A stretch of DNA of 53,837 nt from an uncultured Lachnospiraceae bacterium (GTDB lineage: Bacteria > Bacillota > Clostridia > Christensenellales > UBA1242), in NCBI GenBank assembly GCA_964541365.1, contig CAZIPJ010000002.1, positions 1 to 53,837 on the forward strand. The letters run 5' to 3'. Under the pieces are notes generated by a model, which searched no databases, was not told where the DNA came from, and saw nothing but the letters and a program-made list of their open reading frames with translations. Position numbers and translations under genes: made by a program. Of this stretch, positions 10,801 through 32,839 are shown one piece after another. The number at the start of each line of letters is the position of its first letter. The first letter of the stretch is position 1.

Positions 10801-13072
10801 TTTCAAATTTGTCGGATATCAAAAATTCTGTTGAGTCGCCCTGTGCAATCTCTGGCGTTCCGAGCGAAACATCATTTAAAAAGACTTCATAACTTGAAAT
10901 GTTTTCGGCATTCTTGATTGATATGTAATAATTGCTTCCATTGTCTGCAAACTTGACATCTTCAACTTCAAGCTTCTCGCAAATGTAGAAGACTTCTTCC
11001 AGTGCATTTTGTGATGCTATGTTTTTGTCCGCATCCAAACTAAGTGAATAGACTTTTGCGTAATAGTATCCAACTTTTGTGACATCAATACTTGTTTCTT
11101 CAACTACTCCACCAAGGTCAACTAAGCCTGTTGTGTCAATGTTGATTTGTTCAGCGTCTTTATTTTGCTCATACACAGTCTTGTCAATTTCAAAAAGTTC
11201 AACCTTATAACTTCCAGCACCAGCTACGCTTGCCCAAGAAAACTCTTTCTTTGTTGAGTTTCCAGCATTTGCTGTCTGTGGCACGTCCAAAACTTCAATT
11301 CTCTTTGTTTTTGAAGAGCCAATTGAAAGTGTGTCATCTTCCGTCTTCGCAACAATTCTCAAATCGAAAACGCTTTTGCCGCCTATCTGATAAGGCTCAA
11401 CCAAATCTTCCAATTTACCTACAAGAGTGATTGCAACAGTTTCTTCTCCAATGCTGACATTGTATTTTTCTGACTCAACATCCACAAACTCTGACTCACC
11501 ACGGGTTTGCAAAGTATAACTCGTTGCAAATTCAGTTTTTGAGAAAGTCAAAACAGATTTCCCATCCACATAAGAGTGAACAACATTTCCACTGATTGTA
11601 TCAACCTTTGTTGCAACGATACTGTTTGATGCGTTTGAGTTAATAACCAAAACATTTTGTCCAGAAATTGTGTTTTGTGCTGAAACAGGAATCTGCTTCA
11701 AAGAAATTGTGTGACTGCCACTCTGCGTTAAAGCGATTTCAAAGTTGAAGTTTTCATTGCCAGCTTCAAAACCTTCAACAGATGTTTTCACGCCAGCAAC
11801 ATCAACACTAAGCAAAACATCAACAGGATTTGCTTGTGAACTCAAATTCATTCCAAAACTTGTTCTGTCAACAGTGTTTCCGCCAGCTCCTTCAATGTGA
11901 GCGGTTGGCAATTTATAAATCTTTCCAAGTTCAAGTTCTTCACTTTGGAAGAAGAATCCTGTTTCTGTCTTTGGCAGAGCCACAACTTTCACATTGTAAA
12001 GTCCAGCATCCACATCTTCAAAAGTCTCAAAGATTTGTTCTGCATCATTTGAAACAAAAATGCTTGCCTTGTTTGCTGAATTTGAAGCATCAACAAAGTC
12101 GAAACGATAACTTGTTGCATTTGCGTCTGTAACAATTTTCACCCTTCCGCCATTGGTTGAGTCATAAACATACTGTGCATTTGCAGTTGCAAGCTTGTTG
12201 ATTGTCACAGTTTCGCTCTCTGTTGCCAAAAGCATACCTTTTTGGTCATAAGCAACAACGCTTACTGTATGTGCCCCTGCTGATGATGCACTCAAACGCT
12301 CAAAAAGTGAGATTGAGTTTACTGTCTGTCTTTGTGCAAGTTCGACGCCGTCAAATTTAATTGCATAATTTGAGTTGTCTGCTCCATCCCAAGACAACTC
12401 CCCTTTCTGTTCATCCCAAGCAAAGTTGGTTGGTGCTTGCATATAGCCATAGTGAAGTGTCACTGGCTGTGATGGATTGCTGTCAGCAAAATAGCCTGTT
12501 CCAAGTGCAGTGACTGTCAGCTTGTAAACACCGCTTCTTGAAAGAGCATAGCTTGTTGACGCAACTGTTTCATTGATTTGCACTGTGTCAGTCACAACAG
12601 ATGGGTCAGTTGCAGAGTAAACTGTGCAGAACCCTTCCACTTTGTATTCATTGGCAGAGACAACTTGTCCGTTAAAATATGAGTAGACTGGGTTCCAACT
12701 GAATACCCCGTCAGATGAGAGTGGGCTGTCGGAGAATGTTGGACTTGTGAATTGAGTTCTGACAACAATCTGCATTGAAGCAAGAACATTTTTCTTGTAA
12801 GTTGCGTGAACATATGATTTTCCAGATTTGACAGCAGTGAGAGTCTTGCCGTCAAAATCAAATAAGTCTGGGTTTTCAAGTTTGTATGTAATGCTTTTCT
12901 TTTCAACTTTCTTGACTGACAAATATTCGTCAAGGCTTATGGAATCATTGATAGAGATAACAATCTCCTTTTTGTCGAAGGTTGCTTCGGGTTTTTTAAA
13001 ATCGCACGCCATTAAAACCGTGCCAAGTGTCAACATAAAAATTGACATAATGAAAATCTTCAACTTCTTCAT
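1838..13072 (-). CDS. Giant (3744 aa) cell-surface lipoprotein with many Fn3/Ig-like repeats and a C-terminal GLUG-type beta-helix module; putative adhesin
   Basis: Uninterrupted 11.2-kb ORF. Lipobox signal MKKLKIFIMSIFMLTLGTVLMAC. SD GGAGAGGAG 8 nt upstream of the ATG. Recurrent Fn3-like module starts: FSWASVAGAGSYKVELFE, LSWDSVSGATGYVFRMYE, LTWNSVEGRTEG, LSWDGADNSNYAIKF, LTWTNIDENAQKYYVYF. C-terminus has FTGEIRGNGYTI followed by G-[LI]-A/G-x-x-N repeats (SGLAITNSGKIENV, GGIAFTNYASIENC, AGIVVTNAGYSKLAGC). Confidence 0.85.
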   Translation of the reverse strand: MKKLKIFIMSIFMLTLGTVLMACDFKKPEATFDKKEIVISINDSISLDEYLSVKKVEKKSITYKLENPDLFDFDGKTLTAVKSGKSYVHATYKKNVLASMQIVVRTQFTSPTFSDSPLSSDGVFSWNPVYSYFNGQVVSANEYKVEGFCTVYSATDPSVVTDTVQINETVASTSYALSRSGVYKLTVTALGTGYFADSNPSQPVTLHYGYMQAPTNFAWDEQKGELSWDGADNSNYAIKFDGVELAQRQTVNSISLFERLSASSAGAHTVSVVAYDQKGMLLATESETVTINKLATANAQYVYDSTNGGRVKIVTDANATSYRFDFVDASNSANKASIFVSNDAEQIFETFEDVDAGLYNVKVVALPKTETGFFFQSEELELGKIYKLPTAHIEGAGGNTVDRTSFGMNLSSQANPVDVLLSVDVAGVKTSVEGFEAGNENFNFEIALTQSGSHTISLKQIPVSAQNTISGQNVLVINSNASNSIVATKVDTISGNVVHSYVDGKSVLTFSKTEFATSYTLQTRGESEFVDVESEKYNVSIGEETVAITLVGKLEDLVEPYQIGGKSVFDLRIVAKTEDDTLSIGSSKTKRIEVLDVPQTANAGNSTKKEFSWASVAGAGSYKVELFEIDKTVYEQNKDAEQINIDTTGLVDLGGVVEETSIDVTKVGYYYAKVYSLSLDADKNIASQNALEEVFYICEKLEVEDVKFADNGSNYYISIKNAENISSYEVFLNDVSLGTPEIAQGDSTEFLISDKFETAGQEYTISVVAHSDNEQLYNESDAFEFVVERLPKVAREDIQIGELTLQVDTTDLSANSISQELSISAVAGAKGVRIWDGNGTTAGSENETVAKLSISNQSNVEYNFRYYGSAQKDSVFAMESGKVYLSGEISTYRFTRLQTPTELSYYDGALRFEHTATTSTAYYVLTIVCVGLNGKEENITVKLARNTTACYQDIEENIGSDSEFVSINANVVTIDFENIIEQIQSIGKIANVYNQSDKVGFAVYAEQDRLEGGIVTISSNFATTSLDNSKVVCVVEKMPETILEIDLETSDTDYILKWSAAASNASYESETRYQVLLDGVEVGDEISALTKSFARTDFDVSTYYEFSVVVTNPYYVQSDSSNIIRIYKLGAISQLKLFETAQLGYEISSIEKDFVDYVKVVTASSFDNNKTGKVDITENGRYTLKVVGKKAVESEGNKKTYYVDSEESSWTVSQMSALKPADESVTYQNNTISWNEFASSQNLHCLRYILMFVDENGNTARYKTASTSENLTTNKELYNALNALSGEVTIYVSAYLETFPIVDDLTDKPTYSVAAGGTVYYSKAVELPLQAGMTENNHYLYSGTATVNKFATPNIKNVEFVADDLANAQLPDVKIVFEGNYGTSRNFDIFLNGEFYRTENITLADGKYSFVLSPVDYNSKVDIGETLTVGVCALSDTDILSSIASVEIVRVKQVEEIEFVEDSQLGFTHKLKIKLPAETQTSGGVVVKVTYQETGDALKDEYVLVPVNEVLTEIEYDLTETLSKTESGKRILAKGGKVKLSAFVASVSSANKYSLACSVWTESDEYQILATVEEVEKTSGGFVIDADTNSTLTTYIVECNNTTFEVTYENGKFYFEFPHGGQWANGTYTLTVYAKEDGKLRAIATEIDFVLNKLTPLSDVMIQRDADDLSAITLSWDSVSGATGYVFRMYEAGDETRANLIYEYVEERTNGSSTIVNSCTLTDMFGEGFVKLLEGGKVDIFTLMSDKNFVFDVFVRGSEGVNDSDTFTFNATIKGNSLEVQNFEVNAFGNIVFNCTAGETYLYRFTTSDGTVLQNWTKLYAESDSVKIDTSKLTAQGGTYYNMEVTVVGNNIADEISTKQDGLVVDSITFTTRGTDRTFVVGTDIVEVGYIESEGNTDLSFELVIGTYTRIYVGLSEDALLNEQVVSIIPLHIAQGSTNEQEICTYKLPTIIDKLKELGQTISANNQDIDLYFWACKDIDESDLQNCYTISHSSSCSFTYENKIDFIGIRKLGKELAEDSKFIEDYANSFALFENNDISENKTTFGIYVKISPLEAGNEDISPVVMFVDRQTLLSGDYFLDEDCFEINLTKLFEESEFADLYGKFSFEFSVLSVKALDGEKQFVLSDWIGSDNGKQFVFNKLRDIDRLDLMSGSLTWTNIDENAQKYYVYFIESVNDNLQIGDTYVYDVANTNRYNASEFIGLEKGYYLAVRSVNEDAYVLPSQLQFVMSEGKPVKIEKNEIKAPLKIENGKVFIEFAEGEDETLKLSSGDGRDFVDYIRNCGESTEAVNTLLNTTFKVPFTFKLSDLVYGRIFVRLRFTSLANSVEGRSQTFDVDARYLISSLFALDDGYDYKAKLGILENRGGGATLRAFSALMEDGSFGVGNYKTLFDDRFESLQTGEYKLDYCLLGNSSSLTSAWYSFKNNGENSIYVNNEPTVQAIKTSAVDGYNSANSYKVILKKSEIYSKQDGVLTSEIAKNYILKIYNDANEYYAFSISKISTAYSLTLFNGKDGVSVSVYETDEFGKETVDGDYLMFYINQNEGNSILGRYGMEIKKGAYKMQIFATGNDYSFSSKSALFNLTLYGFKDDFSLNNGEFSWTPQKNVKTTVIYKKHSSVSETIAEPIETTSNTARYSLDEAGYGLYDYVDFLVVGDVYANNIFVDSEVYHIENVYKLMTPSVSNVNGLIQIDDTNNKEFEGLDGCYSDLDLYNYKVYNDVSSESIQFIDSNNAEKPIYYEVGVTDLSQNAPEYNYKYSEYSASKFYIASLGTTATFEIENNNDPTRYYLKNVKYPNTVEGDSDKMLGVALRSNFEEFDAKMLDTASGLSIRDGVLTWNSVEGRTEGNLTISNREKIVYKVTVVQYDLSYVDDGESENEYANKLEYYTLETKFDFARIPEEKLNKSAKFMKATVQAFAMNVSNVIPAFPTYLNLVEGGYAYGNVKFAGTDSFVLMGNGETIKSIERCQSIDEDSLAVVDGGLTWTVTFDSATSATENFGETYKFSVVDENFKEIEGDFTFEQGMTDRQVVVKFSESKGQLSAKTQALTVYMTKVSTQNSVIKSFGKEIEITKLKAIDSNDFVISSNERDSNIEILDFTNYFESNASNVIELSIYQNDDKTDTPTKFVFNATKSKLYILEQEDEAITADNEYVGKFVVGQNSRTIMNFNVKNLSLENCLYSDVSDDLILQRSSWGDGRITWNSQAQRFEWSYNGFNALQQKHQVTKIEQIIETSKETVLYQDRDLEIGTIVGDEQLKLAEGTEIVVENIYENSSEISYEGNTYFISNSDYRDAIKAVETTTLSAGTLFKIVDAGSGTESIIQTEDGALYTIAKESIVKPVYIVEATYGEGASAIVRTYTTTKNYFTPTIIGKVAIKVKIKLGEANIQSQALEYNNGQTVNYNLFAAGQGTAQSPYLISTETQFKNILHRLSKDESLKRFTENGNIKNEEEKYYFSLQRDIVLSSELQGILFDGVFTGEIRGNGYTIEYVNSTVSKLSNGDVTVSEGNVVSSTDADSTVISYGAALFETLSSTAVVKDLNLKVTLSAGSSTPYVTRNSLISGLAITNSGKIENVNLTGLRTNFVGIGSNRTRIMMIYSGIASINIGRDAVITNCSANTNMEFNDLNTAQLIFFGGIAFTNYASIENCTAGDATSAKTISVVGLSESDVVQVAGIVVTNAGYSKLAGCKNYANITVSAQYDNDNFVVYIAGVTALANGTVQNNQNNGKITATNILDKNLHKGNIYPNDEY

Positions 13073-20417: not shown

Positions 20418-20449
20418 ATGATATCAAAAATCCCGTTGACTTGTCAACG
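20418..20449 (-). promoter_or_regulatory. Sigma-A-like promoter of the ABC operon overlapping a perfect 7-2-7 palindrome (candidate operator)
   Basis: Minus strand reads TTGACA (20447-20442)-N18-TATCAT (20423-18). The -35 lies inside the palindrome CGTTGAC-tt-GTCAACG (20434-20449). Confidence 0.45.
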
Positions 20450-20490
20450 AAATGCTGGCACAATCCTTAAACTAAATATGCTCAATAAAT

Positions 20491-20510
20491 AAAAAAAGTT
20501 CAAAAGAACT
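20491..20510 (-). terminator. Rho-independent terminator ending the ESCRT-like operon
   Basis: Hairpin AGTTC-aaaa-GAACT (20497-20510) 4 nt after the stop of the 1279-aa gene. On the minus strand it is followed by a T7 run (plus-strand A-run 20491-20497). Confidence 0.55.
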
Positions 20511-20514
20511 TTTC

Positions 20515-23500
20515 TTATTTTAATGTTGGAAGTCCGTCACCAGACAAATTCCAAATTTTTGAATTAAAGTTAAAAATTGAGCTATATGCTTTCACTTCAT
20601 TTCTTACTGCAACAGTGGCATCTGCAAAAGCACTAATAACTTCTCCGACCACTTTTCTGTCTGATGTGCAAAAACTGTATTTCACAACTCCACCAAGTGT
20701 ACCTACAAGTCCGCCAACTTTCATTGTATTTTCACAGTTTATGACAACTGCACTGTAACTGTGACTTATTGAAATACCTGTTTCACTGTTAACGTACTTG
20801 CCATAAAGCCCACCAACAGAGACATTTGTAAATGTTGAAGCAATGCCTATTGTGCCAGTGGAGTAATTGTTTTCACTTCCACTTTTTCCATCACCAACAA
20901 GTCCACCAACAAAAAGCTGTTCTGCATTTCCGCTAATTTGTAAACCTGCCAAATTTGCAGAGTTCTGTTCCAAGAGCAGTTTCTTTTCTTCAAAGTTATC
21001 AAGTGTTCCGACAAGCCCACCAACATTTGCAGTCATCAAACTCTTTCCCGTCAGATTCAAATAAATAGAACAACGATTTGATTTTATTGTGGAAGTCCCG
21101 CCAACTTTCACTGCCCCAGCAAGTCCGCCAAAGTCAATATTATTTTTTGACGCATCAATTCTTATATTTAAATTTACTTCGCAATCTGAAATAGCTCCAC
21201 CTTTGTTTTGTGATGCAATCCCACCAAAAACAAAGTCTTTGCTTGTTTCAATCCAAACTGTTCCATTGCAGAATATCTTACATTCTTTGATTTTTCCGCT
21301 GTTTTTTACTGCAATGCCTGCAAAATTTGATATACCACTCAATTTCTTTGTTGTGTAATAAACTTGAAGTTTTTTCACTTCTCCCGAGTTGCTTGAAAAG
21401 AGTGCAATTTTCTTTTTTGCTCTAACATTAAGATTTGAAACCGTAAACCCGTTGCCGTCAAGAGTTCCGCTGAAAGCACAAGGCTTCCAATTGACGTTCT
21501 CCATATCCACATCATTTTCCAGACGAAGCTCAGCATAAGGAGCATTGTGCAAAAGCGTTTTAAATTCTTTTGCGTTGTTGATTGTCACAACTGTTGGCAT
21601 AAGGTAGAACCCAATGCACATAAGAGCAACATTTAAAAATCCAAAGAACATCAAAACCAAATTTGCGGTTTTCCAATTTTTGTGCAATTTGTTTTTCTTT
21701 ATAAGAAAATAAACCAAATTCACTAGGGAAACAGCCGCACTTAGACAAACAAGTGCAATCACAAAATTCTGGTTGAAGTACATATACACTTCTTTTGGGA
21801 TTGCAATAATAACAGCCAGAAGAAGCGTCGTAAACAAAATAGGAAACATCTCCAAAAAGGCATATAAGTACCTTTTCATAAACTTTTTGTGTTTATCATA
21901 TTCAACTTCAACTTCAACCGATGGAGCAGTTTTCTCTTTCTGTTTCTTTGGAGTCTTAACAGCAAGCTTTTCAACTTTTGCAGCCTTCAAGCCCGCTTCC
22001 CTTCCTTCAAGCTTTGCCACATTAACTGACATATCAAGAGTCAAATCAAGAAGATTGAGCCTTGTCGCAATCTTATTGGCAACATCTTGATACTCTTCCA
22101 AAGTGATATTCCCTTTAAGCTTGTTTACATAGTTTTCAAAAGGTTCAAGTTGCAGTTTGAAATAGTTTGCGCCACGAAGTACATTTTTCCCTTCTTCACT
22201 TACCATTTCAAGCAAAATCTTGTTGTTTCTTAAAACAAAGTCATTCAGTTTTTCGGTCAAAACTTTCTTATCTAACCATTCATCAGCAATGTCTGATTTC
22301 TCTCCTGAATAGAGATTTGATTTGCTGATGACTGCACCATATTTTTCTGCTTGTGCACTGTCTGCACAGGCAAGCAAACTTTCCCATTCTGGCATCTGAG
22401 AAATCTTAACTTTGCTCTTAACCAGTTTTGCTTCTGAATTGCAGTGACATTTGATTTGAATCAATTTCCAATACAACTGAGCATCTGTCTTATCTTTTGA
22501 AATTGCAATCGTGATATATTTCTCAGCTGCGGTGTAAAATCTCATCTGTTGGAAATAATCTGCCACTGCTTTCAAAATCTCAGCCAGACTCTTGTCGTCT
22601 TCCACATAAGCAAGATAAAAATCAAGTTGTTGCTGTGCTTTTTGAAGGTCAATATATGACACCGGCAAAATAATGTTCACAATAGAAGAAATCAGCTTTG
22701 CACGTTTCTCCTTGGAAAGATATTTAAGAGTATCTTCAACAATATCTTTCTTCCTAAATTCAAGTTTTGAATTGCTGTCTTTAAAGTTTTTCAAAAGCAT
22801 TGCAATATTGCTTTGCTCGTGTCCAGCATCAATATCCAAAACCTTTTTGTAATAATTGTCATCCCCGCTCTTTTGTGCAAGCATAAAATAGAAGTCAACA
22901 AATCTATCAACATCGTCATTTTGAAAACATTTAAGCACTTTGTCAATTAGAGATGGGTCAAGTGTTTCAAGAGCTTTTGTTTCAGCCGCAGAAATAAGTC
23001 TCTCCCTGTTTGGAGTGTTATATTGTGCCAAGTATAAAAGGAAAGAGTTGTAATATTCCACACTGTCAAGTCTCATAACCAGATTTCCCCAGTTATCAAC
23101 TATCATTTCAGCAAACTCTTTTGGTGCAAATTTAAGGATGTTGTCAATTCTTTCTTTTTCTTTCAAGTTTGCAATGTCAAGGAAAAATTCCCCTGCTGTT
23201 CTGACTTTATAGTCACAAAGCAGTGTTGCAAACAAAAGTTCCGCATTGTTTGGGTCACTTTGAAGTTCCTTTTCAGCCATCTCCCTTGCGGACTGAAAAT
23301 CACCATTTTTAAGACTGATGAAAATCCACTTAATTTTGTTGGCTTCACTCATCTCCAAATTTTCAACTTTATAGTTTCCAAGTTCGGCCGCATTGATGCT
23401 CTCAACTTCAACCTTTTTCTTCTTTACGGAAGAAACTTTCTTGACGCTAACTTTTTCAATTTTTGCCACTTCAAGCAAGGCTTTTTCTTTCTCTGCTTTG

Positions 23501-24354
23501 ACTTTAAGTGCAAGCTCATCAACCTGCCCATCGCCTGATAAGTCAATAATATTTTTAATGCTTGTTAAGTCTTTTGGCAAAACATCTTCTGTTACGCCAT
23601 TGTCAAAAGCGACAACAAAACTTGTCGCACTTTTTTGTTTCTCTGATATAAAATATCTATACCTATCAAACAGATTCTTGACTTCGCTGTCATTAAATCC
23701 AGTAGTTTTATTTGCATACAAAACAAAAACACTTGCAGTTTTTAAAGCATTAAAAGTCTCTTCTTCTGTCTCTTTTTCTCTTTCCTGAACAAAATAGGTT
23801 GACAGACCTTTTTCTTCAAATGCTCTAACAGTATCCAAAAGCTTATCATTTGGATTGGTTCTGTCAAAGTTCATTGCACAAAGCACAACATCATATGTTT
23901 TTGCTCCTGCAACATTTTTATAGCTTTCAGCGATTTTTTCAATCAGCTTGGCAGTTTCGGTATAGGTTCTTGCCGACTCAGCTGGTGCATTTTCCACTGC
24001 ACTTACAAAATCAGGGTCGTCATTTATTTTGCAAATTTCATCGCCAAAAAAACGGGGCTTTTTGCTGGAAGTCCCTCTTCTGGAATAAAGTACGATTTTG
24101 TGCTTTGCCAAAACCTTACCAAAATATGCTTCGAAAGACATTGGATAGAGTGCCAAAATCTTGTCAAACTCATCCAATGCTTCGTCAAATTTAAACTGTC
24201 TTAATTTTTCATATGCCCAAACTGTGAGAGTTTCTTCTTCTTTTGAAGCGTGTTCGTCCACGTAAAGAGTACCACAAAACTGGCATTTAACCATATTTTG
24301 CCCAACAACTGCATATTGTCTGCCCCCACAGTTTTTACAAACACGTTCTCTCAA
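20515..24354 (-). CDS. 1279-aa multidomain membrane protein: N-terminal zinc ribbon, possible TIR-like/flavodoxin-like module, long TPR-like helical region, 3 TM segments, extracellular GLUG-type beta-helix
   Basis: TTG start at 24354 with AGGGG 6 nt upstream.
- Zinc ribbon: CKNCGG...CQFCG.
- TIR-like: YDVVLCAMNF...EEKGLSTYFVQ...ASVFVLYANKT (tentative).
- Repeated TPR-like units: EAYFGKVLAKHKIV, AELLFATLLCDYKV, AQLYWKLIQIKCHC.
- TM segments: FPILFTTLLLAVIIAI, FVIALVCLSAAVSLVNLVYFLI, LVLMFFGFLNVALMCIGFYLM.
- C-terminus: FSGTLDGNGFTV, then AGIAVKNSGKIKEC, GGIASQNKGGAISDC, GGLAGAV, GGLVGTL, GGLVGDG, GGLYGKY. Confidence 0.8.
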   Translation of the reverse strand: MRERVCKNCGGRQYAVVGQNMVKCQFCGTLYVDEHASKEEETLTVWAYEKLRQFKFDEALDEFDKILALYPMSFEAYFGKVLAKHKIVLYSRRGTSSKKPRFFGDEICKINDDPDFVSAVENAPAESARTYTETAKLIEKIAESYKNVAGAKTYDVVLCAMNFDRTNPNDKLLDTVRAFEEKGLSTYFVQEREKETEEETFNALKTASVFVLYANKTTGFNDSEVKNLFDRYRYFISEKQKSATSFVVAFDNGVTEDVLPKDLTSIKNIIDLSGDGQVDELALKVKAEKEKALLEVAKIEKVSVKKVSSVKKKKVEVESINAAELGNYKVENLEMSEANKIKWIFISLKNGDFQSAREMAEKELQSDPNNAELLFATLLCDYKVRTAGEFFLDIANLKEKERIDNILKFAPKEFAEMIVDNWGNLVMRLDSVEYYNSFLLYLAQYNTPNRERLISAAETKALETLDPSLIDKVLKCFQNDDVDRFVDFYFMLAQKSGDDNYYKKVLDIDAGHEQSNIAMLLKNFKDSNSKLEFRKKDIVEDTLKYLSKEKRAKLISSIVNIILPVSYIDLQKAQQQLDFYLAYVEDDKSLAEILKAVADYFQQMRFYTAAEKYITIAISKDKTDAQLYWKLIQIKCHCNSEAKLVKSKVKISQMPEWESLLACADSAQAEKYGAVISKSNLYSGEKSDIADEWLDKKVLTEKLNDFVLRNNKILLEMVSEEGKNVLRGANYFKLQLEPFENYVNKLKGNITLEEYQDVANKIATRLNLLDLTLDMSVNVAKLEGREAGLKAAKVEKLAVKTPKKQKEKTAPSVEVEVEYDKHKKFMKRYLYAFLEMFPILFTTLLLAVIIAIPKEVYMYFNQNFVIALVCLSAAVSLVNLVYFLIKKNKLHKNWKTANLVLMFFGFLNVALMCIGFYLMPTVVTINNAKEFKTLLHNAPYAELRLENDVDMENVNWKPCAFSGTLDGNGFTVSNLNVRAKKKIALFSSNSGEVKKLQVYYTTKKLSGISNFAGIAVKNSGKIKECKIFCNGTVWIETSKDFVFGGIASQNKGGAISDCEVNLNIRIDASKNNIDFGGLAGAVKVGGTSTIKSNRCSIYLNLTGKSLMTANVGGLVGTLDNFEEKKLLLEQNSANLAGLQISGNAEQLFVGGLVGDGKSGSENNYSTGTIGIASTFTNVSVGGLYGKYVNSETGISISHSYSAVVINCENTMKVGGLVGTLGGVVKYSFCTSDRKVVGEVISAFADATVAVRNEVKAYSSIFNFNSKIWNLSGDGLPTLK

Positions 24355-24363
24355 TTTAGACCC

Positions 24364-25503
24364 CTAATCTTTCTTCTTTTTAATGTATCCGCTGACTTCA
24401 TTGTTATAGTCATCGAAAAGTTTGATTTCGCTTGGTGTCACGCTTGGTGGCATAACAGCCAAAACTCTGTCAAAATCAGCGTTTGTGATTTTAACGATTG
24501 AATCAGTGGCAATTGCCTGCAAAAGTGGTTCATCTTTTGCTCTGTCACAAAGTTCTTCAATGTCAGCACCACTGTAATTTTCTGTCTGCTCAACAATCTT
24601 GTCAATATCAAAATCGTCAGCAACAGGAACATTTTTCATATTTTTGTTAAGCATAAACTTTCTTGCAGGAGCATCAGGAAGTGGCAAATAAATCTTCTGT
24701 GAAAATCTTCCAGAACGCATTGCTGCACTGTCAATGTCCCAAGGTCTGTTTGTTGCACCCAAAAGCAAAAGGTTTTGGTTTCTTCCAGCAAAACCATCAA
24801 TCTGTTGCAAAAACTCGTTTACTCTCTTGTTGTTGTGAGTGTCATCCCCACGCTTACCCAAAAGGTTGTCCATTTCGTCGATGAAGATGATTGCTCTGTC
24901 TTGCTTGTTTGCTTCTGCAAAAAGGGAGTTGATATTCTTCTCACTGTCACCAACCCACTTGCTGACAATGTCAGAACCTTTGACTGCATAAAACTTTGCA
25001 CCAACTTCATTTGCAATAGCTTTTGCAATCATCGTCTTTCCTGTCCCTGGTGGTCCATACAAAAGCACGCCACCACCGCTCTTTTTGCCATACATCTTGT
25101 ATTTTTCTGGGTATTTGACAGGATTTATCATTCTGATTGTAATCGCTTTCTTGACTTCATCAAGTCCAGCAACATCAGAAAACTTTATGTCAGGCACTTT
25201 TGCCGCCTGCCATTTCTTGATATCGTCATCTTCACCTTCTGACTTGCTGTCATCTTTCTTTTCCACTTTCATTGGTTTCTTTCCAAGATTTTCAGACAAA
25301 TCAACAAGATTTCTTGCTCTTTCCATTCTCGCTTCTTTAAGCTTGCCTTGGCTTTGCTTTGCCATTTGCATCATCGTCTCACCAGCAAGCAAAAAGTTTC
25401 TTTTTGCAAGAGTCAAATTTCCTTTTTCCTTTGCTTCTTTTCCCTTTCTCATATAAAGGTCAAAAGTGTCGGACAAAACAGTCATATTTGGTTGTTCTTT
25501 CAC
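24364..25503 (-). CDS. Vps4/katanin/spastin-clade (meiotic clade) AAA+ ATPase with MIT-like N-terminal three-helix domain
   Basis: 379 aa. GTG start at 25503 with GGGAGA 6-7 nt upstream.
- Walker A: LLYGPPGTGKT.
- Pore-loop region: SDIVSKWVGDSEKNINSLF (compare yeast Vps4 SDLVSKWMGESEKLVKQLF).
- Walker B: IIFIDEMD.
- Sensor and Arg-finger region: LLGATNRPWDIDSAAMRSGRFSQKIYLPLPD (compare Vps4 [29 protein letters not shown]).
- N-terminal 75 aa: helical, MIT-like (YMRKGKEAKEKGNLTLAKRNFLLAGETMMQMAKQSQGKLKEARMERARNLVDLSENL), followed by an acidic/Lys linker. Confidence 0.85.
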   Translation of the reverse strand: MKEQPNMTVLSDTFDLYMRKGKEAKEKGNLTLAKRNFLLAGETMMQMAKQSQGKLKEARMERARNLVDLSENLGKKPMKVEKKDDSKSEGEDDDIKKWQAAKVPDIKFSDVAGLDEVKKAITIRMINPVKYPEKYKMYGKKSGGGVLLYGPPGTGKTMIAKAIANEVGAKFYAVKGSDIVSKWVGDSEKNINSLFAEANKQDRAIIFIDEMDNLLGKRGDDTHNNKRVNEFLQQIDGFAGRNQNLLLLGATNRPWDIDSAAMRSGRFSQKIYLPLPDAPARKFMLNKNMKNVPVADDFDIDKIVEQTENYSGADIEELCDRAKDEPLLQAIATDSIVKITNADFDRVLAVMPPSVTPSEIKLFDDYNNEVSGYIKKKKD

Positions 25504-25525
25504 CGTTCGTCTCCCGTTTAAAAAT

Positions 25526-25988
25526 TTAGTACATTGTTTTATCTTTGATTTTCATATAATCTTCAAAGAGTTTCAAACACTCTTTGTGGTCAACTTGAAT
25601 AATTTTATCTTTCATCTTTTCGGTCGAGATTGAAAGGTTTTTATAGAATATTTCATCCCTAAAACCAATCATATCATTCTCTGCAATCGTGCAACCGTAA
25701 TAAATCTTATTGATGTTTGCCCACAAGATTGCACCCAAACACATTGGACAAGGTTCGCCAGTTGTGTAAATGTCTGCACCACTCAAATCAAATGTGTTCA
25801 AATTCTTGCAAGCATTTCTGATTGCGTCAATTTCTCCGTGACAGGTTGGGTCATTATTTACCACAACGTGGTTGTGCCCCCCCGATTACTTTTCCATCCT
25901 TCACGACAACTGCACCAAAAGGTCCACCATCATTATGGCTGATGCCCTGTCTCGCTTCTTGGATGGCGATTTTCATAAACTTATTCAT
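25526..25988 (-). pseudogene. CDA-fold guanine deaminase-like (GuaD/TadA superfamily) gene interrupted by a frameshift in a G7 tract
   Basis: Two track ORFs (25854-26126, 25526-25864). From ATG 25988: MNKFMKIAIQEARQGISHNDGGPFGAVVVKDGKVIGG, then a frame change at plus-strand C7 (about 25870-25876), then ...NNDPTCHGEIDAIRNA...GEPCPMCLGAILWA. These are the CDA zinc motifs (C/H)AE and PCxxC. Removing one G restores KVIGGHNHVVVNNDPTCHGE. Confidence 0.75.
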
Positions 25989-26010
25989 AGTTTTTTCACC
26001 CCTAAATTTA

Positions 26011-26607
26011 TTACTCAGAAGCAGAATCAATTTTCTTTCTGAGTTCTTCCATTTCCTTGTCAATGCTTTCACTTGAAAGACTGTCAAGACTTGCTTGTTC
26101 TTCAATAAACTTTGCAAATTCTGCATCTGTCATCTCTGCGCCCTTCTTGTCTTTTCCAGCATTGTAGAATGTCTCTTGGCTCATTTCCATAAAGTTGTCC
26201 ATTTGGTCAGTTTGAGTTTCAACTGCTGTCATTGCAGCTTCAAACTGAGCTTGGATTTTTGCAAATTCTTTTGCATCTGCAAGTTTTGTCATTTCCTTGC
26301 TGATGTCGCTCATTCCCCTAAGGAAATCAGATGTCATCATTGTCACATCTTTCATCTGTGCAGTGATTTCAAAGTTGAGAAGCATTTCTTGTGCTCTTCT
26401 TTGTTGTTGAACAGTCATTTTATAACCGCTGAGTGCAAGTTTGTATTGTGCATCCAAAGACTTTTCTTTTGCTCTCTTTGCAGCATCAATAAACACCTGC
26501 TTTTGGTCTTCAAGCTTGTTGATTTGCTTGTTCATTGTGTTGATAGTTCTTTTAACCAACATCTTCTTTTCAATTTCTTTTTGCTGTTTTGTTTTAAACA
26601 ATCCCAT
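26011..26607 (-). CDS. Snf7/ESCRT-III-like protein (CHMP2/Vps2-like pattern) with acidic C-terminal MIM-like helix
   Basis: 198 aa, all-helical by composition. Starts MGLFKTKQQKEIEKK. Basic N-half and acidic C-half. The segment QMKDVTMMTSDFLRGMSDISKEMTKLADAKEFAKIQAQFEAAMTAVETQTDQMDNFMEMS parallels CHMP2A LKSNNSMAQAMKGVTKAMGTMNRQLKLPQIQKIMMEFERQSEIMDMKEEMMNDAIDDA. The C-terminus SIDKEMEELRKKIDSASE parallels CHMP2A DLEERLKNLRRD. SD GGAGG lies within the upstream gene's end, and the ATG is 1 nt after the upstream stop. Confidence 0.7.
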   Translation of the reverse strand: MGLFKTKQQKEIEKKMLVKRTINTMNKQINKLEDQKQVFIDAAKRAKEKSLDAQYKLALSGYKMTVQQQRRAQEMLLNFEITAQMKDVTMMTSDFLRGMSDISKEMTKLADAKEFAKIQAQFEAAMTAVETQTDQMDNFMEMSQETFYNAGKDKKGAEMTDAEFAKFIEEQASLDSLSSESIDKEMEELRKKIDSASE

Positions 26608-26608
26608 T

Positions 26609-27223
26609 TTATTCCTCCATCATCATTTTTTTCTTTTTCTTCTCAGCAGTTTCTCTCTGTCCTTCAACATAGAGTTCCTGTTCATCAGCCAATTGATTTT
26701 CTTTCTCAAAAATCGTCAACAAATCTTCTTCGTTCTTGCCCATTCCATAAATCGTTTGATTAACATCGTAAGCAGATTGAACTTCTGAAAACACTTCGTC
26801 TGCACTTGTCAAGACATCTTCGCTTGCAATCCTTGTTTCAAGCGCCTTGTTTAAAAACTTTGCAAGTCCAAGCTGGTCTTTAAGAAGCTCTGAAAGTGGC
26901 ACTTTGGTTTGTGTTTTGAAGAATGTGTTGCTGTCATACGCATCTTTGAGCTTTGTCATAAGTCTGATGTTGTAGAGCAGGTACATTCCCCTTTCCATAC
27001 AAGTCTGTTTTTCTTCGTTAAGATGTGAAATTTTCTTCGCATAGAAAAGTTGCAAATCTTTGTTCTTTTCCTTTTTGCCTTTTTCCATAAGAGCATCAAT
27101 CTCTTTGACCTTCTGGAAAACTTCCGCTTCCACCGTGCGTTCTTGTCTTTCAAGTTCGCAAATGGAGTTGACTAAGTCTTCACGGTTAAGTTTTTTAAAT
27201 TTGTTTCTTCTAAATAACCACAT
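26609..27223 (-). CDS. Second ESCRT-III-superfamily-like coiled-coil protein (Snf7/PspA-like), tentative
   Basis: Start taken at ATG 27223 (MWLFRRNKFKKLNREDL) with SD GAAGGAGC 7 nt upstream; the track ORF extension has no SD. 204 aa. Basic N-terminal helices (EIDALMEKGKKEKNKDLQLFYAKKISHLNEEKQTCMERGMYLLYNIRLMTKLKDA), acidic C-half, Lys-rich tail AEKKKKKMMMEE. Confidence 0.5.
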   Translation of the reverse strand: MWLFRRNKFKKLNREDLVNSICELERQERTVEAEVFQKVKEIDALMEKGKKEKNKDLQLFYAKKISHLNEEKQTCMERGMYLLYNIRLMTKLKDAYDSNTFFKTQTKVPLSELLKDQLGLAKFLNKALETRIASEDVLTSADEVFSEVQSAYDVNQTIYGMGKNEEDLLTIFEKENQLADEQELYVEGQRETAEKKKKKMMMEE

Positions 27224-27236
27224 TTTCTTGCTCCTT

Positions 27237-27599
27237 CTAATAGTTCTCGCCAGCGACGATTGCATTGATGCCTTCCAAGAAATCTTCATAGACCTTCTTT
27301 TGTCCATCGTCGGCAAAGGTGAATGCATTTTGACATTCTTGCATCGACATAACATCTTTGTAAGCGACAGGGTCTTTCAGCAATTGGTCTTCCGTTTTGA
27401 TGCGAAGTTTGTACAACATCAATCCCCAATAAGCATCAGCACATTTGCTGTCATATTGCAACGCCAACAGGAAATTGATTTTAGCTTGTTCAAACATCCC
27501 TTCGCTTAAATTCAAATAGCCAAGACGAAGTTCTTTCAAGACATTTGTCTTCTCGCTTTCTCCAAGCGTATCTGATGCTTGATAAAACCTTCCTATCAT
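27237..27599 (-). CDS. Small TPR-like protein
   Basis: 120 aa. LRLGYLNLSEGMFEQAKINFLLALQYDSKCADAYWGLMLYKLRIKTEDQL resembles TPR pairs. It shares the A-x-Y/L-W/F-x-x-L-L-x-x-Y/H-K motif with the 1279-aa protein. Confidence 0.5.
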   Translation of the reverse strand: MIGRFYQASDTLGESEKTNVLKELRLGYLNLSEGMFEQAKINFLLALQYDSKCADAYWGLMLYKLRIKTEDQLLKDPVAYKDVMSMQECQNAFTFADDGQKKVYEDFLEGINAIVAGENY

Positions 27600-28012
27600 A
27601 CTTGTTCTTCCTTCTTTCTTTGAACAATGAAGCCTTCAACTTCTTCCAGCATTCTCATACAAGTTTCTTGTGTGTTGTCTTTTGCAACAATAATTTTCAA
27701 GTCGTCAAGCTTGTTTGAAAGTTTTGCATCCACCGCCAAAACCTTTTGATTTGTTGTTGGATTAAAGAATCTGATGTCATCTTTCGCTTGAACAAGTCTT
27801 CTGCAAAGAGCATCGTTTCCATCTGCATAAACCAAAATGCTTTCAACATTTGCAACCATATTTTCAATGCTCTTTTTGTTTTTAAGCACACCACGACTTC
27901 CGATGTCTTCATTTCCGCTTTCTTTTTTGGTTTTCTTGCCGTACTCTCTCCAAATGAAGAATCCTGCAAGTCCAACAACCGCCAACATAATGATAATATA
28001 AACAGCAATCAT
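27596..28012 (-). CDS. Single-pass (N-terminal TM) helical protein, function unknown
   Basis: 138 aa. MIAVYIIIMLAVVGLAGFFIW TM segment followed by a charged helical region. 4-nt ATGA overlap with the next gene. SD GGAGAAAAA upstream. Confidence 0.5.
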   Translation of the reverse strand: MIAVYIIIMLAVVGLAGFFIWREYGKKTKKESGNEDIGSRGVLKNKKSIENMVANVESILVYADGNDALCRRLVQAKDDIRFFNPTTNQKVLAVDAKLSNKLDDLKIIVAKDNTQETCMRMLEEVEGFIVQRKKEEQV

Positions 28013-28024
28013 ATTTTTTTCTCC

Positions 28025-28858
28025 TTAGATTTTCTTTCCACAATTCTGGCAAAACTTTGCACTAGCACTGTTTTCAGTATTGCAATCTGGGCAGACCTTA
28101 ACTGTTCCAATTCTTCTTCCGCAGTTGTAACAGAATTTTGCACTTGCAGAAAGTTCTTCTCCGCAGTCTGGGCAAATCACAACATCCGCAGGTTTCTTGT
28201 TTCCGCTTTTGAAATTTCCAGAAAGTTTGGCATAATCAGCTTCGTCAATGATAATATTTGCAATATTGAAAGAATAAACAGCAATTCCGTATTCTCCCAT
28301 AAGTTTTTGATTAAGTTTCGTCAAAACTTTGGATGAGATTTCTCTTTTCTTGACTGTGACTTGGTTGAACAAAATTTCTTGCGAACTTACATATTCAACA
28401 ACCACGTTCTCCACAACAGAAACAACTGTAGTTTGAAGTCTGTCTTGAAGGTCATCGGTTGTCAAATCATTGTCAGCACCAATCAAATACAAATAGCATT
28501 TTCTTGGGTCGCCAATCTGCACATCATAATCTCCGCTCATCCCCACTTTGTAATTTTCTTGCAAATTTGCATCATACATAAGGAATTTCTGAGCCGTCCC
28601 CCACAAAAGATTAAGTTTTGCAGTCTTGGACATAAAAAGAACTTCCAAATTGCTGTCAAACTCATTTTTCACATCCACAAACTTGCTGACAAGATATTTG
28701 CCAGAAGAAAGTGTTTGAAGCATTTGCCCGTCCTTAATCAAAATTGCATTGTGAGTTTCAGGGACCAGAAGTGTCAGTTTTGCAGTCAGACTTTCAATCT
28801 TGTGTCTGCTGAAAAGGCTCTTGTTGTCACCAGAAAATGTAATAATGTTTTGTTCCAT
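28025..28858 (-). CDS. SPFH (band-7)-like YdjI-type protein fused to two C-terminal zinc ribbons
   Basis: The body (...LLVPETHNAILIKDGQMLQTLSSGKYLV...LLWGTAQKFLMYDANLQENYKVGMSGDYDVQIGDPRKCYLYL...LMGEYGIAVYSFNIANIIID) matches the YdjI/virion-core-like SPFH pattern. C-terminus is CPDCGEELSASAKFCYNCG and CPDCNTENSASAKFCQNCG. Start is ATG 28858 (or GTG 28861); the SD is weak. Confidence 0.75.
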   Translation of the reverse strand: MEQNIITFSGDNKSLFSRHKIESLTAKLTLLVPETHNAILIKDGQMLQTLSSGKYLVSKFVDVKNEFDSNLEVLFMSKTAKLNLLWGTAQKFLMYDANLQENYKVGMSGDYDVQIGDPRKCYLYLIGADNDLTTDDLQDRLQTTVVSVVENVVVEYVSSQEILFNQVTVKKREISSKVLTKLNQKLMGEYGIAVYSFNIANIIIDEADYAKLSGNFKSGNKKPADVVICPDCGEELSASAKFCYNCGRRIGTVKVCPDCNTENSASAKFCQNCGKKI

Positions 28859-28902
28859 CACAGCTTCATCTTCTTTCAGAAGATACTCTCCTTCATAATG
28901 AT

Positions 28903-28930
28903 ATTATCACAAACATTTTTCAAAAGTCAA
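28903..28930 (-). promoter_or_regulatory. Sigma-A-like promoter for the 8-gene operon
   Basis: Minus strand reads TTGACT (28930-25)-N16-GATAAT (28908-03), with TGT immediately upstream of the -10 (extended -10). Confidence 0.45.
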
Positions 28931-30062: not shown

Positions 30063-30139
30063 GGGGGTATGGCTCAGTTGGCTAGAGCACCTGCCTTGCA
30101 AGCAGGGGGTCATCGGTTCGAATCCGATTATCTCCACCA
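30063..30139 (+). tRNA. tRNA-Ala (anticodon UGC), CCA encoded
   Basis: Hand-folded cloverleaf: acceptor GGGGGTA/TATCTCC with G3:U70 (Ala identity); D-arm GCTC-AGTTGGCTA-GAGC; anticodon arm CCTGC-CTTGCAA-GCAGG; T-arm ATCGG-TTCGAAT-CCGAT; then ACCA. Confidence 0.92.
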
Positions 30140-31523: not shown

Positions 31524-31660
31524 TTCTTAGGATAACCATAAAGAGTGTGTAAGGGACAAGCCCGTTGACCACACAGCAACCTGCTTTTCGTAAGGTGCTA
31601 ATGCTTGAAACGATGGACAATAGCCGCCTGTTGTATCCATCGTCTGCGATGGATTTTTTA
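31524..31660 (+). promoter_or_regulatory. SAM-I (S-box) riboswitch with intrinsic terminator, leader of metK
   Basis: Conserved core strings are present in order: AGUGUGU-AAGGGA-CAAGCCC-GUUGA-CCACACA, GCAACC, GGUGCUAA. Terminator ATCCATCG-tctg-CGATGGAT plus T6 (31634-31660). A competing upstream CGATGGA (31611-17) could form an antiterminator. I could not fold the P1/P4 pairing cleanly by hand. Confidence 0.6.
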
Positions 31661-31756
31661 TGGAAAAGAGAAGAAGCCGTTTGTTTCTTCACAAATATAA
31701 TTTGTCTGTACGCAAAAAAAATGCGTCACGGACTCACAGACGCAAGGAGAAAAGAT

Positions 31757-32839
31757 ATGAAAAGAATAGTAACTAGCGAAAGCGTAAACATCGGTCACCC
31801 AGACAAAACCTGTGATTGCATAGCAGATGCCTTTTTGGACGAAGCACTAAGGCAAGACCCAAACAGCCAAATGGCAGTCGAGTGTGCAATAAAAAACAAC
31901 CGCCTGTTTATCTATGGCGAAGCGACCACAAAGGCAAAAATTGATTATAAAAAGATTGCAAGACAAGTCTTGGAAGATGTGGGTTATAAAACAAAGTTCA
32001 AAATCAAAACCGAGCTTTCAACTCAAAGTCCGGACATCAACCAAGCAGTAGTCAAGACAAAACTTTGTGCAAATGACCAAGGTATTGTCTTTGGTTATGC
32101 AACCAATGAAACCAAAGAATGTATGCCACTCCCAATTTTGGTCGCACATAAATTGATGAAAAAGTATGATGAATATCGTAGAACTACTGATGATTTTTTT
32201 GCAGATGCAAAAAGCCAAGTTTCGGTTTTGTATGAAGATGACAAACCTGTCTCTTTTGACACAATTCTTATAAGCGTCAGTCACAGCGAAGACTGCCAAG
32301 ACCTGCAAAAGAAGATTATGGATAATGTAATCACCCCCGTCCTTGACGAATACAAAAAGTATGTTAAAAAATCAACAAAATACATAATAAATCCAAGTGG
32401 AAAGTTTACAATTTGGGGAAGCTTTGGAGATAGCGGTTGTGTTGGCAGAAAAATCGTTGTAGACACCTACGGTGGCGTAGGCAAAGTTGGTGGTGGATGT
32501 TTCAGCTCCAAAAATGCAACCAAGGTGGACAGAAGTGGTGCTTATTACGCCCGCTATGTTGCCAAAAACCTTGTTGCAAACGGATTTTGTGATAGATGCG
32601 AAATTGAAGTCTCCTACGGCATAGGTCTTGAAAAGCCATTGTCCGTAAACATCAATTGTTTTGGAACAGAAAAAGTCCCACTTTCAAAAATCTATCAGAC
32701 TGTTGAACAACACTTTGATTTCTCCCCAGACAATATCATCAAAGAGTTGAACCTACTTCGACCAATATACAAGCAAACGGCTTGCTATGGGCACTTCGGC
32801 AGAAGCGAATTCCCTTGGGAGACACTCGTGTCACTCTAA
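31757..32839 (+). CDS. metK: S-adenosylmethionine synthetase
   Basis: Start at ATG 31757 with SD AAGGAG. ESVNIGHPDKTCDCIADAFLDEAL, ...GAGDQG-equivalent NDQGIVFGYA, GGGCFSSKNATKVDRSGAYYARYVAKN and ...TACYGHFGR are MetK signatures. Confidence 0.92.
   Translation: MKRIVTSESVNIGHPDKTCDCIADAFLDEALRQDPNSQMAVECAIKNNRLFIYGEATTKAKIDYKKIARQVLEDVGYKTKFKIKTELSTQSPDINQAVVKTKLCANDQGIVFGYATNETKECMPLPILVAHKLMKKYDEYRRTTDDFFADAKSQVSVLYEDDKPVSFDTILISVSHSEDCQDLQKKIMDNVITPVLDEYKKYVKKSTKYIINPSGKFTIWGSFGDSGCVGRKIVVDTYGGVGKVGGGCFSSKNATKVDRSGAYYARYVAKNLVANGFCDRCEIEVSYGIGLEKPLSVNINCFGTEKVPLSKIYQTVEQHFDFSPDNIIKELNLLRPIYKQTACYGHFGRSEFPWETLVSL

Follow-up and report, generated by a model that had tools for sequence, protein, structure and literature searches.

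A conserved operon of uncultured Clostridia combines a Snf7-type ESCRT-III protein with a Vps4-like ATPase: a candidate bacterial membrane-remodeling system

RESULTS

An operon of tightly spaced genes on the minus strand

The DNA analyzed here (the window) is a stretch of 53,837 nucleotides, positions 1 to 53,837 of contig CAZIPJ010000002.1 in assembly GCA_964541365.1, from an uncultured Lachnospiraceae bacterium that GTDB places in the Christensenellales (UBA1242) of the Clostridia. We investigated eight consecutive minus-strand genes, g1 to g8 in the direction of transcription, which had been proposed from the sequence alone to form a bacterial ESCRT-III/Vps4 membrane-remodeling system (the original prediction). 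Our analysis places a Snf7-type ESCRT-III protein (g5) beside a Vps4-like AAA ATPase (g7) in an operon whose gene order is the same in 31 species-level genomes, and we consider it probable, at roughly 0.6, that this operon encodes a membrane-remodeling machine with a housekeeping function in the envelope of the window lineage.

All eight genes appear in the open reading frame (ORF) listing of the window exactly where the original prediction had placed them, and the recomputed inter-gene distances (12, -4, 13, 1, 22, 22 and 9 nt from g1 to g8) reproduce each of its seven gaps. The operon begins with an SPFH protein of the YdjI type (g1, 28025-28861), followed by a protein with one N-terminal transmembrane (TM) helix and a cytoplasmic helical domain (g2, 27596-28012), a weakly TPR-like protein of 120 amino acids (g3, 27237-27599) and two helical proteins of 204 and 198 amino acids (g4, 26609-27223, and g5, 26011-26607). 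Downstream of these are a cytidine/guanine-deaminase-type gene (g6, 25526-25988), a 379-amino-acid AAA ATPase (g7, 24364-25503) and a 1279-amino-acid membrane protein (g8, 20515-24354).

A sigma-70-like promoter candidate lies upstream of g1 at 28903-28930 on the minus strand (TTGACT-16-GATAAT with a TG, 10/12). It had been described as the single sigma-A-like promoter of the operon. We find the site, and because the AT-rich region holds 33 such matches where about 20 are expected, it is not unique and stands as a candidate only. Terminator-like hairpins are found downstream of g8, also on the minus strand (20430-20510). The one originally named, at 20491-20510, can be read from the sequence as a weak A/T-rich stem with a T-run but falls below the threshold of the hairpin scanner, which instead calls a stronger 10-bp stem with a T-rich tail at 20453-20430.

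Profile comparisons assign g5 to a divergent Snf7-type ESCRT-III family

The g5 family comprised 302 clusters when 1.84 billion representatives were searched exhaustively with HMMER, and 87 members went into the family alignment and profile. Fifteen of these 87 individually match Pfam Snf7 (PF03357; best E 9.6e-7), the only family to turn up repeatedly among them. Searched against the PDB, the family profile finds CHMP2A (E 7.5e-6) over nearly its full length, residues 9-150 against 6-143, and below it CHMP1B, CHMP3, Vps24 and CdvB. Profile-profile alignment with hhalign, for which the ESCRT-III reference sequences were checked against PDB chains (about 1.9-2.0 bits per residue), matches the g5 family to CHMP2A/CHMP3/CHMP1B with 96.5% probability (E 8e-10, over residues 1-170) and to Snf7/CHMP4B/CHMP6 with P 8e-4. 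These results bear out the earlier description of g5 as Snf7-like and, on profile evidence, make it a member of a divergent Snf7-type ESCRT-III family that is CHMP2/3/1-like and distinct from PspA. We rejected a PspA-type identity for g5 and g4: PspA_IM30 is not among the recurrent Pfam families of g5-family members, neither g4 nor g5 matches it, and the hhalign comparison of the g5 family with E. coli PspA is not significant.

The AlphaFold2 model of g5 (predicted local distance difference test score, pLDDT, of 83) has four long helices at residues 7-48, 52-109, 113-152 and 161-197. When the model was compared with the PDB by Foldseek, the 11 best matches all belonged to the ESCRT-III superfamily, each with a weak individual E-value of 0.05-0.3. 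The protein passes from a basic N-half to an acidic C-half (Lys plus Arg over Asp plus Glu, 20/11 and 12/24), and the charge asymmetry foreseen for both g4 and g5 is present in both, milder in g4. The N-terminus of g5 reads MGLFK, compared with MGLFGK in CHMP3, and is exactly MGLFK in 18 of the 87 family members. A MIM1-like C-terminal helix (I182-x3-M-x2-L-R190, 26029-26064 on the minus strand) is present in the window protein, and the same strict pattern is found in 27/87 family tails versus 7.5% of control windows.

g4, g2 and g3

The start of g4 is the internal MWLF methionine at 27223, in agreement with its orthologs, and the family has a conserved MW(L/P)F N-terminus. We found no direct match of g4 in Pfam, NCBIfam or the PDB, by single sequence or by profile, nor to the CHMP/Snf7 ESCRT-III references. 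With a profile extended by homologs from two distant loci (L040 and L043), hhalign aligned g4 with the g5 family collinearly, residues 29-178 against 23-174, with a probability of 62%, P 7.5e-5 and a score of 34.7; among the controls, 20 column-shuffled profiles reached at most 18.3 and the reversed one 16.3. From this alignment g4 is probably a second, very divergent ESCRT-III-like subunit or paralog. Of the two Snf7-like proteins originally predicted, g5 is thus well founded and g4 tentative, the latter by a weak profile match to the g5 family alone.

As had been noted, g2 carries an N-terminal TM helix, placed by hydropathy at residues 2-20 (27953-28009, minus strand). One protein of 310 amino acids in L043 joins the soluble domain of g2 (residues 48-133) to a g4 homolog, a Rosetta-stone argument that g2 may work directly with g4; we propose that g2 may be a membrane anchor or nucleator for g4. 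For g3 the predicted TPR likeness comes down to a weak Pfam match (TPR_8, E 0.065). It is the least conserved of the small genes (42-77% identity) and is absent from L031-L034 and L043, and we regard it as accessory rather than core.

g7 is Vps4-like in architecture and context

The ATPase has a single classical AAA domain with its lid (residues ~105-350; Pfam AAA, E 2.8e-42, and AAA_lid_3). The motifs GPPGTGKT, IIFIDEMD, SKWVGDSEK and RSGRF are evident in the sequence and do not vary across the alignment. Of the Vps4-type strings originally reported, the pore loop SKWVGDSEK is Vps4-like, but the arginine finger has the Cdc48-type RSGRF spacing. In the AlphaFold2 model, helices 7-26, 30-50 and 54-71 form an N-terminal three-helix bundle (pLDDT 84-89; MIT-like, residues 7-71, 25291-25485 on the minus strand), followed by a disordered acidic linker (75-96), the one AAA domain and a C-terminal helix (357-376). 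An hhalign comparison of this N-domain with a five-sequence MIT profile gave P 5e-4 over helices 1-2, and an MIT identity is plausible for the modeled bundle.

The NCBIfam CdvC model aligns with g7 from end to end (residues 16-368 with 13-366 of 370 model positions) at 206.8 bits, far under the CdvC cut-off. The AAA part alone gives 201.9 bits with the same model, and the N-terminus therefore contributes only about 5 bits. End-to-end alignment with CdvC is also seen for the homologs in L001 and L031. The NCBIfam CDC48 model scores 219.6 bits with the full protein, of which it aligns the AAA part alone. Vps4_C is just sub-threshold on g7 (E 1.2e-3, 19.2 bits versus a cut-off of 21.3 bits); it is a precomputed match in many g7 orthologs of 80-83% identity, and the motif also occurs in Cdc48-D2.

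With validated references, phmmer scored g7 at 191.6 to yeast Vps4 and 195.4 to p97-D2, and by sequence the AAA core is equally close to Vps4 and Cdc48-D2. For more divergent members of the ATPase family the score to Vps4, katanin or CdvC exceeds that to Cdc48-D2, and the L001 ATPase has the Vps4-type arginine-finger spacing. In a rough neighbor-joining tree the family joins a group of Vps4, CdvC, katanin, spastin and ATAD1 at 79% bootstrap; D2 is nearest outside this group, and a grouping with Vps4 specifically received 0.3%. The predicted membership of the meiotic/Vps4 clade finds support from this rough tree in the broad sense and none for Vps4 specifically. Makarova et al. (2024, PMC10936438) use a gene neighborhood with ESCRT-III genes as an operational criterion for Vps4, and g7 has such neighbors in the window operon, in the orthologous loci and in distant loci. 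From its architecture and gene neighborhood g7 is therefore Vps4-like in architecture and context. We also observed that the Christensenellaceae ATPases at L031 9995-11524 and L032 9989-11584 are longer (509-531 amino acids), with an extra C-terminal extension of about 130-150 residues.

The SPFH protein g1 and the membrane protein g8

The SPFH domain of g1 is a clear match to Pfam Band_7_1 (PF13421; E 4.5e-16, 59.5 bits versus a 24-bit cut-off) at residues 30-206 (28244-28774), and its C-terminal double zinc ribbon occupies residues 226-277 (28031-28186, minus strand; DZR 5.8e-11, Zn_Ribbon_1 4e-14). This is the YdjI-like protein with two zinc ribbons that had been described. Hydropathy gave no TM segment in g1, a predicted cytosolic protein.

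In g8, a zinc ribbon (residues 6-30) and a TPR-like region with Pfam TPR matches are followed by a degenerate TIR-like domain at residues 151-265 (23560-23904), which the original domain list had overlooked, and by a long helical/TPR region. Three TM helices lie where hydropathy places them, at residues 834-917 (21604-21855), as many as predicted. The remainder (residues 921-1279, 20518-21594) is an extracytoplasmic beta-solenoid of GGLxG repeats; five GGLxG motifs are present, but the GLUG domain named earlier was not detected, and so not confirmed, by Pfam. All of these lie on the minus strand. The N-terminal 450 residues of g8 are homologous to a TIR_2 protein of 1315 amino acids in L042 (26% identity, E 8e-32). 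The catalytic W-x3-E motif and a Pfam TIR_2 match are kept in the large proteins of L031, L032, L042 and L001 (best E 4.9e-11), and both are lost in all window-clade proteins, which have KNLF at the W-x3-E position. We rejected an active TIR domain in the window g8 on these two grounds. Across the 31 species the zinc ribbon is 87% identical versus 36% for the extracytoplasmic domain. Judged by these identities, the zinc ribbon is probably a key cytoplasmic contact of g8, and its outside domain is a diversifying, fast-evolving one.

The gene linkage is conserved and excludes the deaminase

A scan of one genome per GTDB species with the ATPase as query returned 35 loci, all in uncultured Clostridia (labeled Caccovivens, Christensenella/Christensenellaceae, Catabacter or 'Clostridia bacterium'). 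Of these 35 species-level loci, 31 share the gene order g1-g2-g3-g4-g5-g7-g8, and the predicted SPFH-Snf7-AAA linkage is found in these 31 species genomes and in more distant loci. In most of the 31 the flanks are also syntenic, the downstream neighbors being an ABC-transporter pair and the upstream ones a small protein and a gene that looks MscL-like by eye. Identity to the window across the 31 species is 75-89% for g4, 77-98% for g5 and 76-94% for g7, and in most genomes where these three are at 75-98% identity falls to about 50% for the flanking ABC transporter. The other genes are looser, at 39-88% for g1, g2, g3 and g8 together and 55-88% for g1. Four Christensenellaceae genomes, with ATPases 57-59% identical to g7, retain g1, g2, g4, g5 and g7.

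The deaminase gene is found only in the window and in L005; the remaining 33 of the 35 loci lack it. The L005 copy is intact (157 amino acids, L005 8012-8485), from which it follows that the window copy, two ORFs split near 25864, is frameshifted. At the same g5/g7 junction L020 has a different gene of 298 amino acids (9085-9981; ASKHA/Ppx-like by eye), and L036 and L038 have a gap of equal size. Given the rarity of g6, the other insert in L020 and the gaps in L036 and L038, we take g6 to be a passenger and the system to consist of seven genes instead of the eight proposed; the deaminase was rejected as a component. The junction itself behaves as an insertion hot spot (the deaminase in the window and L005, the 298-amino-acid ORF in L020, the gap in L036 and L038).

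Distant relatives carry TIR, protease and DNA-motor modules

A Snf7-like gene adjacent to an AAA gene persists at 25-45% identity in L001, L039, L040, L042, L043 and L045, and Band_7_1 is also present in L001, L043 and L045. The named relatives are all Clostridia or Eubacteriales. Two g5-like genes precede the AAA gene in L039, and L040 has two g4-like genes, an AAA gene and a g5-like gene. In L043 (7232-15154) a Band_7_1 and DZR protein is followed by the g2-g4 fusion, a g5-like gene, an AAA gene, FHA and PP2C genes and a Ser/Thr kinase of 958 amino acids. L042 (9001-17328, on a 1.06-Mb Eubacteriales scaffold) has a g5-like gene, an AAA gene of 498 amino acids, a trypsin gene, a BrxL_N/BrxL_ATPase protein and the 1315-amino-acid protein, which combines TPR and TIR_2; no SPFH or g4 gene was found at this locus. 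L001 contains Band_7_1, helical gene(s), an AAA gene, a TIR-bearing protein, a trypsin gene and a Snf7-RuvB-NERD fusion; its 344-amino-acid neighbor gene, considered as a g5 homolog, was rejected as unrelated to g5. L045 and L046 have Band_7_1, helical genes, two AAA genes, Sel1/trypsin and a Snf7-RuvB fusion, with a TIR protein in L045. The L045 locus (GCA_964368715.1, 50-18835) further includes three small proteins and has a cation ATPase and a Ter-associated cluster with four TerD genes directly downstream.

Among 150 g5-family representatives listed, 21 are of fusion size (350-800 amino acids). Eleven were scanned. Behind an N-terminal Snf7-like domain, five carry an FtsK/SpoIIIE motor (P0296, P0301, P0303, P0305 and P0311) and six a RuvB-like AAA domain (P0292, P0294, P0307, P0309, P0353 and P0389), with a NERD nuclease domain in three of these six. 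In all four loci examined (L001, L044, L045 and L046) the fusion gene adjoins a trypsin or Sel1/trypsin gene. We found no relatives on viral contigs. PADLOC-DB v2 gave no system-level match; g7 matched IetA (E 2.5e-40), a generic AAA similarity (115 bits versus a 510-bit cut-off with NCBIfam IteA), and the other six proteins had no meaningful match, g1 being marginal to a homing-endonuclease model (E 0.0028).

Other features of the window

Elsewhere in the window we observed a tRNA-Ala(TGC) gene (30063-30139), a SAM (S-box) riboswitch (31533-31619) upstream of a plus-strand ORF (31565-32839), and a minus-strand ORF of 3744 amino acids (1838-13072) whose N-terminus resembles a signal peptide and which presumably encodes a giant surface protein.

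DISCUSSION

From the family assignments, the protein architectures and the conserved linkage we infer polymerization, MIT-MIM docking, disassembly and roles for g1, g2 and g8. An ATP-recycled ESCRT-III polymer at the cytoplasmic membrane is the best-supported mechanism. g5, probably with g4, would polymerize on the cytoplasmic face of the membrane via its hydrophobic N-terminus and basic N-half, while g1, as a YdjI-type SPFH scaffold, and the membrane-anchored g2 would organize the assembly, the soluble domain of g2 contacting g4. A g7 hexamer would dock by its MIT-like bundle onto the MIM1-like C-terminal helix of g5 and pull subunits through its pore, leading to ATP-driven turnover or constriction of the polymer as with Vps4/CdvC in archaea and eukaryotes. 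g8, predicted to lie N-in/C-out with a cytoplasmic platform of zinc ribbon, TPR and dead TIR, may be the sensor or anchor that sets where and when this occurs. In the window lineage the machine might repair or shed damaged membrane or close necks, an analog of PspA-YdjGHI that is ATP-recycled. We favor a housekeeping role in the envelope in view of the fixed chromosomal position, the strong constraint on the core, the dead TIR domain and the lack of a protease or nuclease in the operon. Of the original prediction of an ATP-recycled repair/scission module, the polymer mechanism is well supported and repair is one possible role, relatives having defense-like and DNA-motor modules. The original prediction had also named in advance four outcomes that would speak against it, and we found none of them: the g5 family falls into Snf7/ESCRT-III and not into an unrelated coiled-coil family, the ATPase family stays with the Vps4/katanin/spastin clade in the rough tree, the N-domain is a predicted three-helix bundle with weak MIT similarity and the linkage is conserved.

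Several observations weigh against this interpretation. g5 on its own has no match in single-sequence searches of Pfam, NCBIfam and the PDB, its individual Foldseek E-values range from 0.05 to 1, and the ESCRT-III status of g4 depends on one weak profile-profile match. For g7, Foldseek is dominated by p97/VAT D2, the AAA part taken alone scores higher with CDC48 (220.7 bits) than with CdvC, and the arginine fingers have the Cdc48-type RxGRF spacing. Only about seven residues separate helices 312-333 and 341-350 in the model, and the Vps4 beta-domain is absent. The MIT-like N-domain of the original prediction survives as a predicted three-helix bundle with weak MIT similarity: Pfam gives no MIT match, and the N-domain profile finds no significant MIT in the PDB, only a chitin-synthase chain (2mpk, E 0.21), which we take to be an MIT domain. 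The AAA tree is a neighbor-joining tree with 12 references only. The system is known here from sequences and predicted models, in organisms that are uncultured, and the catalytically intact TIR domains and the trypsin, BrxL-like and NERD modules of distant relatives point to conflict systems and away from housekeeping.

The distant relatives make two alternatives serious ones, a conflict-system origin and a role at DNA-containing membrane necks. The operon could be one of a family of conflict systems (anti-phage or abortive-infection) associated with the membrane, of which the window version is reduced or domesticated. A TM TPR-TIR protein would then sense attack on the envelope, the ESCRT-III polymer would be the effector platform, the AAA ATPase would reset it, and the effectors would be a TIR NADase, a trypsin-like protease or Snf7-fused FtsK or RuvB-NERD DNA motors. 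The TIR motif kept in the big proteins of L031, L032, L042 and L001, the trypsin and BrxL-like genes of L042, the trypsin gene of L001, the Sel1/trypsin genes of L044-L046, the Snf7 fusions (all 11 scanned carry the RuvB, FtsK or NERD modules), the TerD cluster beside L045 and the fast-evolving outside domain of g8 all speak for such a family. In the window clade, however, the TIR catalytic motif is gone and the operon has neither protease nor nuclease, the flanks are syntenic in most of the 31 species, and g4, g5 and g7 are far more conserved than neighboring housekeeping genes, which is the opposite of an arms race. The PADLOC search and the lack of relatives on viral contigs argue in the same direction, and we consider this explanation unlikely for the window operon. 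Closure of membrane necks in division or sporulation, a Cdv-like abscission in which the Snf7-FtsK/RuvB motors of relatives would clear DNA trapped in the neck, we judge more doubtful still. Snf7-type ESCRT-III works on necks from the cytoplasmic side, the Snf7-like domain stands in place of the FtsK-type membrane anchor in the five FtsK fusions, and the strong purifying selection and fixed chromosomal position would suit such a role, as would the FHA, PP2C and Ser/Thr kinase genes beside the L043 core, which resemble those of archaeal ESCRT loci (PMC10936438). Against it, the window links the operon to no gene for division or sporulation, and an FtsK fusion next to Sel1/trypsin in L044 and RuvB fusions next to trypsin and TIR in L001 and L045 fit poorly with division.

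It is very improbable, in our view, that g7 is a single-domain Cdc48-like unfoldase with other substrates and that the helical proteins are unrelated coiled-coil adaptors with a superficial likeness to ESCRT. The Foldseek and hidden Markov model (HMM) scores of the AAA core, which slightly favor p97/VAT D2, the RSGRF fingers and the lack of a direct ESCRT-III match for g4 would agree with it, but three independent lines (Pfam matches of its members, the PDB profile search and hhalign) place the g5 family in Snf7, the adjacency of Snf7-like and AAA genes is kept in distant relatives at 25-40% identity, and distant ATPases have Vps4-type arginine spacing and their best scores to Vps4, katanin or CdvC. 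We retain the membrane-remodeling machine with a housekeeping envelope function. A wider proposal, which we advance tentatively, is that gut Clostridia of the Christensenellales/Eubacteriales type have a genuine ESCRT-III/Vps4 machine, with g5 and g4 possibly as an A-type/B-type pair and the MIT-AAA protein as disassemblase, together with an SPFH scaffold and a transmembrane TIR-family sensor, and that in relatives Snf7 targets FtsK, RuvB or NERD motors and proteases to the polymer.

Archaeal ESCRT-III/Vps4 loci (CdvB/CdvC of TACK archaea; the euryarchaeal Main, Halo_FHA and Meth_adaptin types) likewise have Snf7-type gene(s) adjoining the gene for an MIT-like single-AAA ATPase, and a MIM-like C-terminal helix on the ESCRT-III protein as in g5. 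Among their other genes are those for SPFH-plus-zinc-ribbon, FHA, kinase and phosphatase proteins (PMC10936438), the first in Meth_adaptin loci, like g1, and the others in Halo_FHA and Main loci, like those of L043. In contrast to the archaeal systems, the host here is a bacterium of the Clostridia, CdvA, ESCRT-II/winged-helix (wH) and adaptin-like proteins are absent, the ATPase has no beta-domain and a core equidistant to Cdc48-D2, and its partner is a zinc-ribbon/TPR/TIR-like TM protein. The PspA-YdjGHI (SamGHI) operon of B. subtilis, also a Firmicute, similarly joins an ESCRT-III-superfamily protein to a Band_7_1 SPFH protein and small membrane proteins, and YdjI is cited in PMC7619361 as localizing PspA to the membrane. 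The window operon differs in that its polymer protein is of the Snf7 and not the PspA_IM30 type, it has a dedicated AAA ATPase, its zinc ribbons are fused to the SPFH protein, and no homolog of the TPM-domain YdjH was detected in it. Cdc48/p97/VAT D2 is the best structural and HMM match of the g7 AAA core (33-34% identity, TM-score ~0.78 to isolated D2, RxGRF fingers), whereas g7 has a single AAA domain, no double-psi barrel N-domain, an MIT-like bundle, an SKW pore loop and coupling to ESCRT-III.

Ravi et al. (2024, PMC11237479) describe a bacterial dyad in which the gene for an MIT and Vps4-like AAA protein is immediately followed by that for a large TPR membrane protein with six TM helices (Opitutus ACB74714.1), displacing snf7, and mention some Snf7/PspA and AAA operons in passing. 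By description the window operon is similar, but it keeps a clear g5, a probable g4 and the SPFH gene, and g8 has three TM helices with a zinc ribbon, a TIR-like domain and an outside solenoid. The dyad was reported in other phyla and not in Firmicutes (PMC11237479). Our full-text literature searches found no description of a Clostridial SPFH/Snf7/AAA/TIR-like system, the only partial precedents being those in PMC11237479.

Current syntheses limit Snf7/CHMP-type ESCRT-III with Vps4 to archaea and eukaryotes (PMC10936438), credit bacteria with PspA/Vipp1 only (PMC8281802) and state of Vps4-like ATPases that they 'appear absent in bacteria' (PMC7619361). If our interpretation is correct, a widespread and strongly conserved operon with Snf7 and a Vps4-like ATPase in abundant uncultured gut Clostridia would blur this line between bacteria and archaea or eukaryotes and make ESCRT-III plus Vps4 a machinery of all three domains. 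Because g7 sits between Vps4 and Cdc48, it would also be relevant to a single origin of Vps4 from Cdc48 in archaea. The operon would provide a bacterial two-subunit and biochemically tractable model of ATP-driven ESCRT-III remodeling, as well as a test case for SPFH scaffolds that feed ESCRT-III polymers. The relatives with FtsK, RuvB-NERD and TIR may represent a novel type of bacterial stress or immunity system anchored in the membrane, and would link ESCRT-III polymers, TIR signaling and DNA handling at bacterial membranes.

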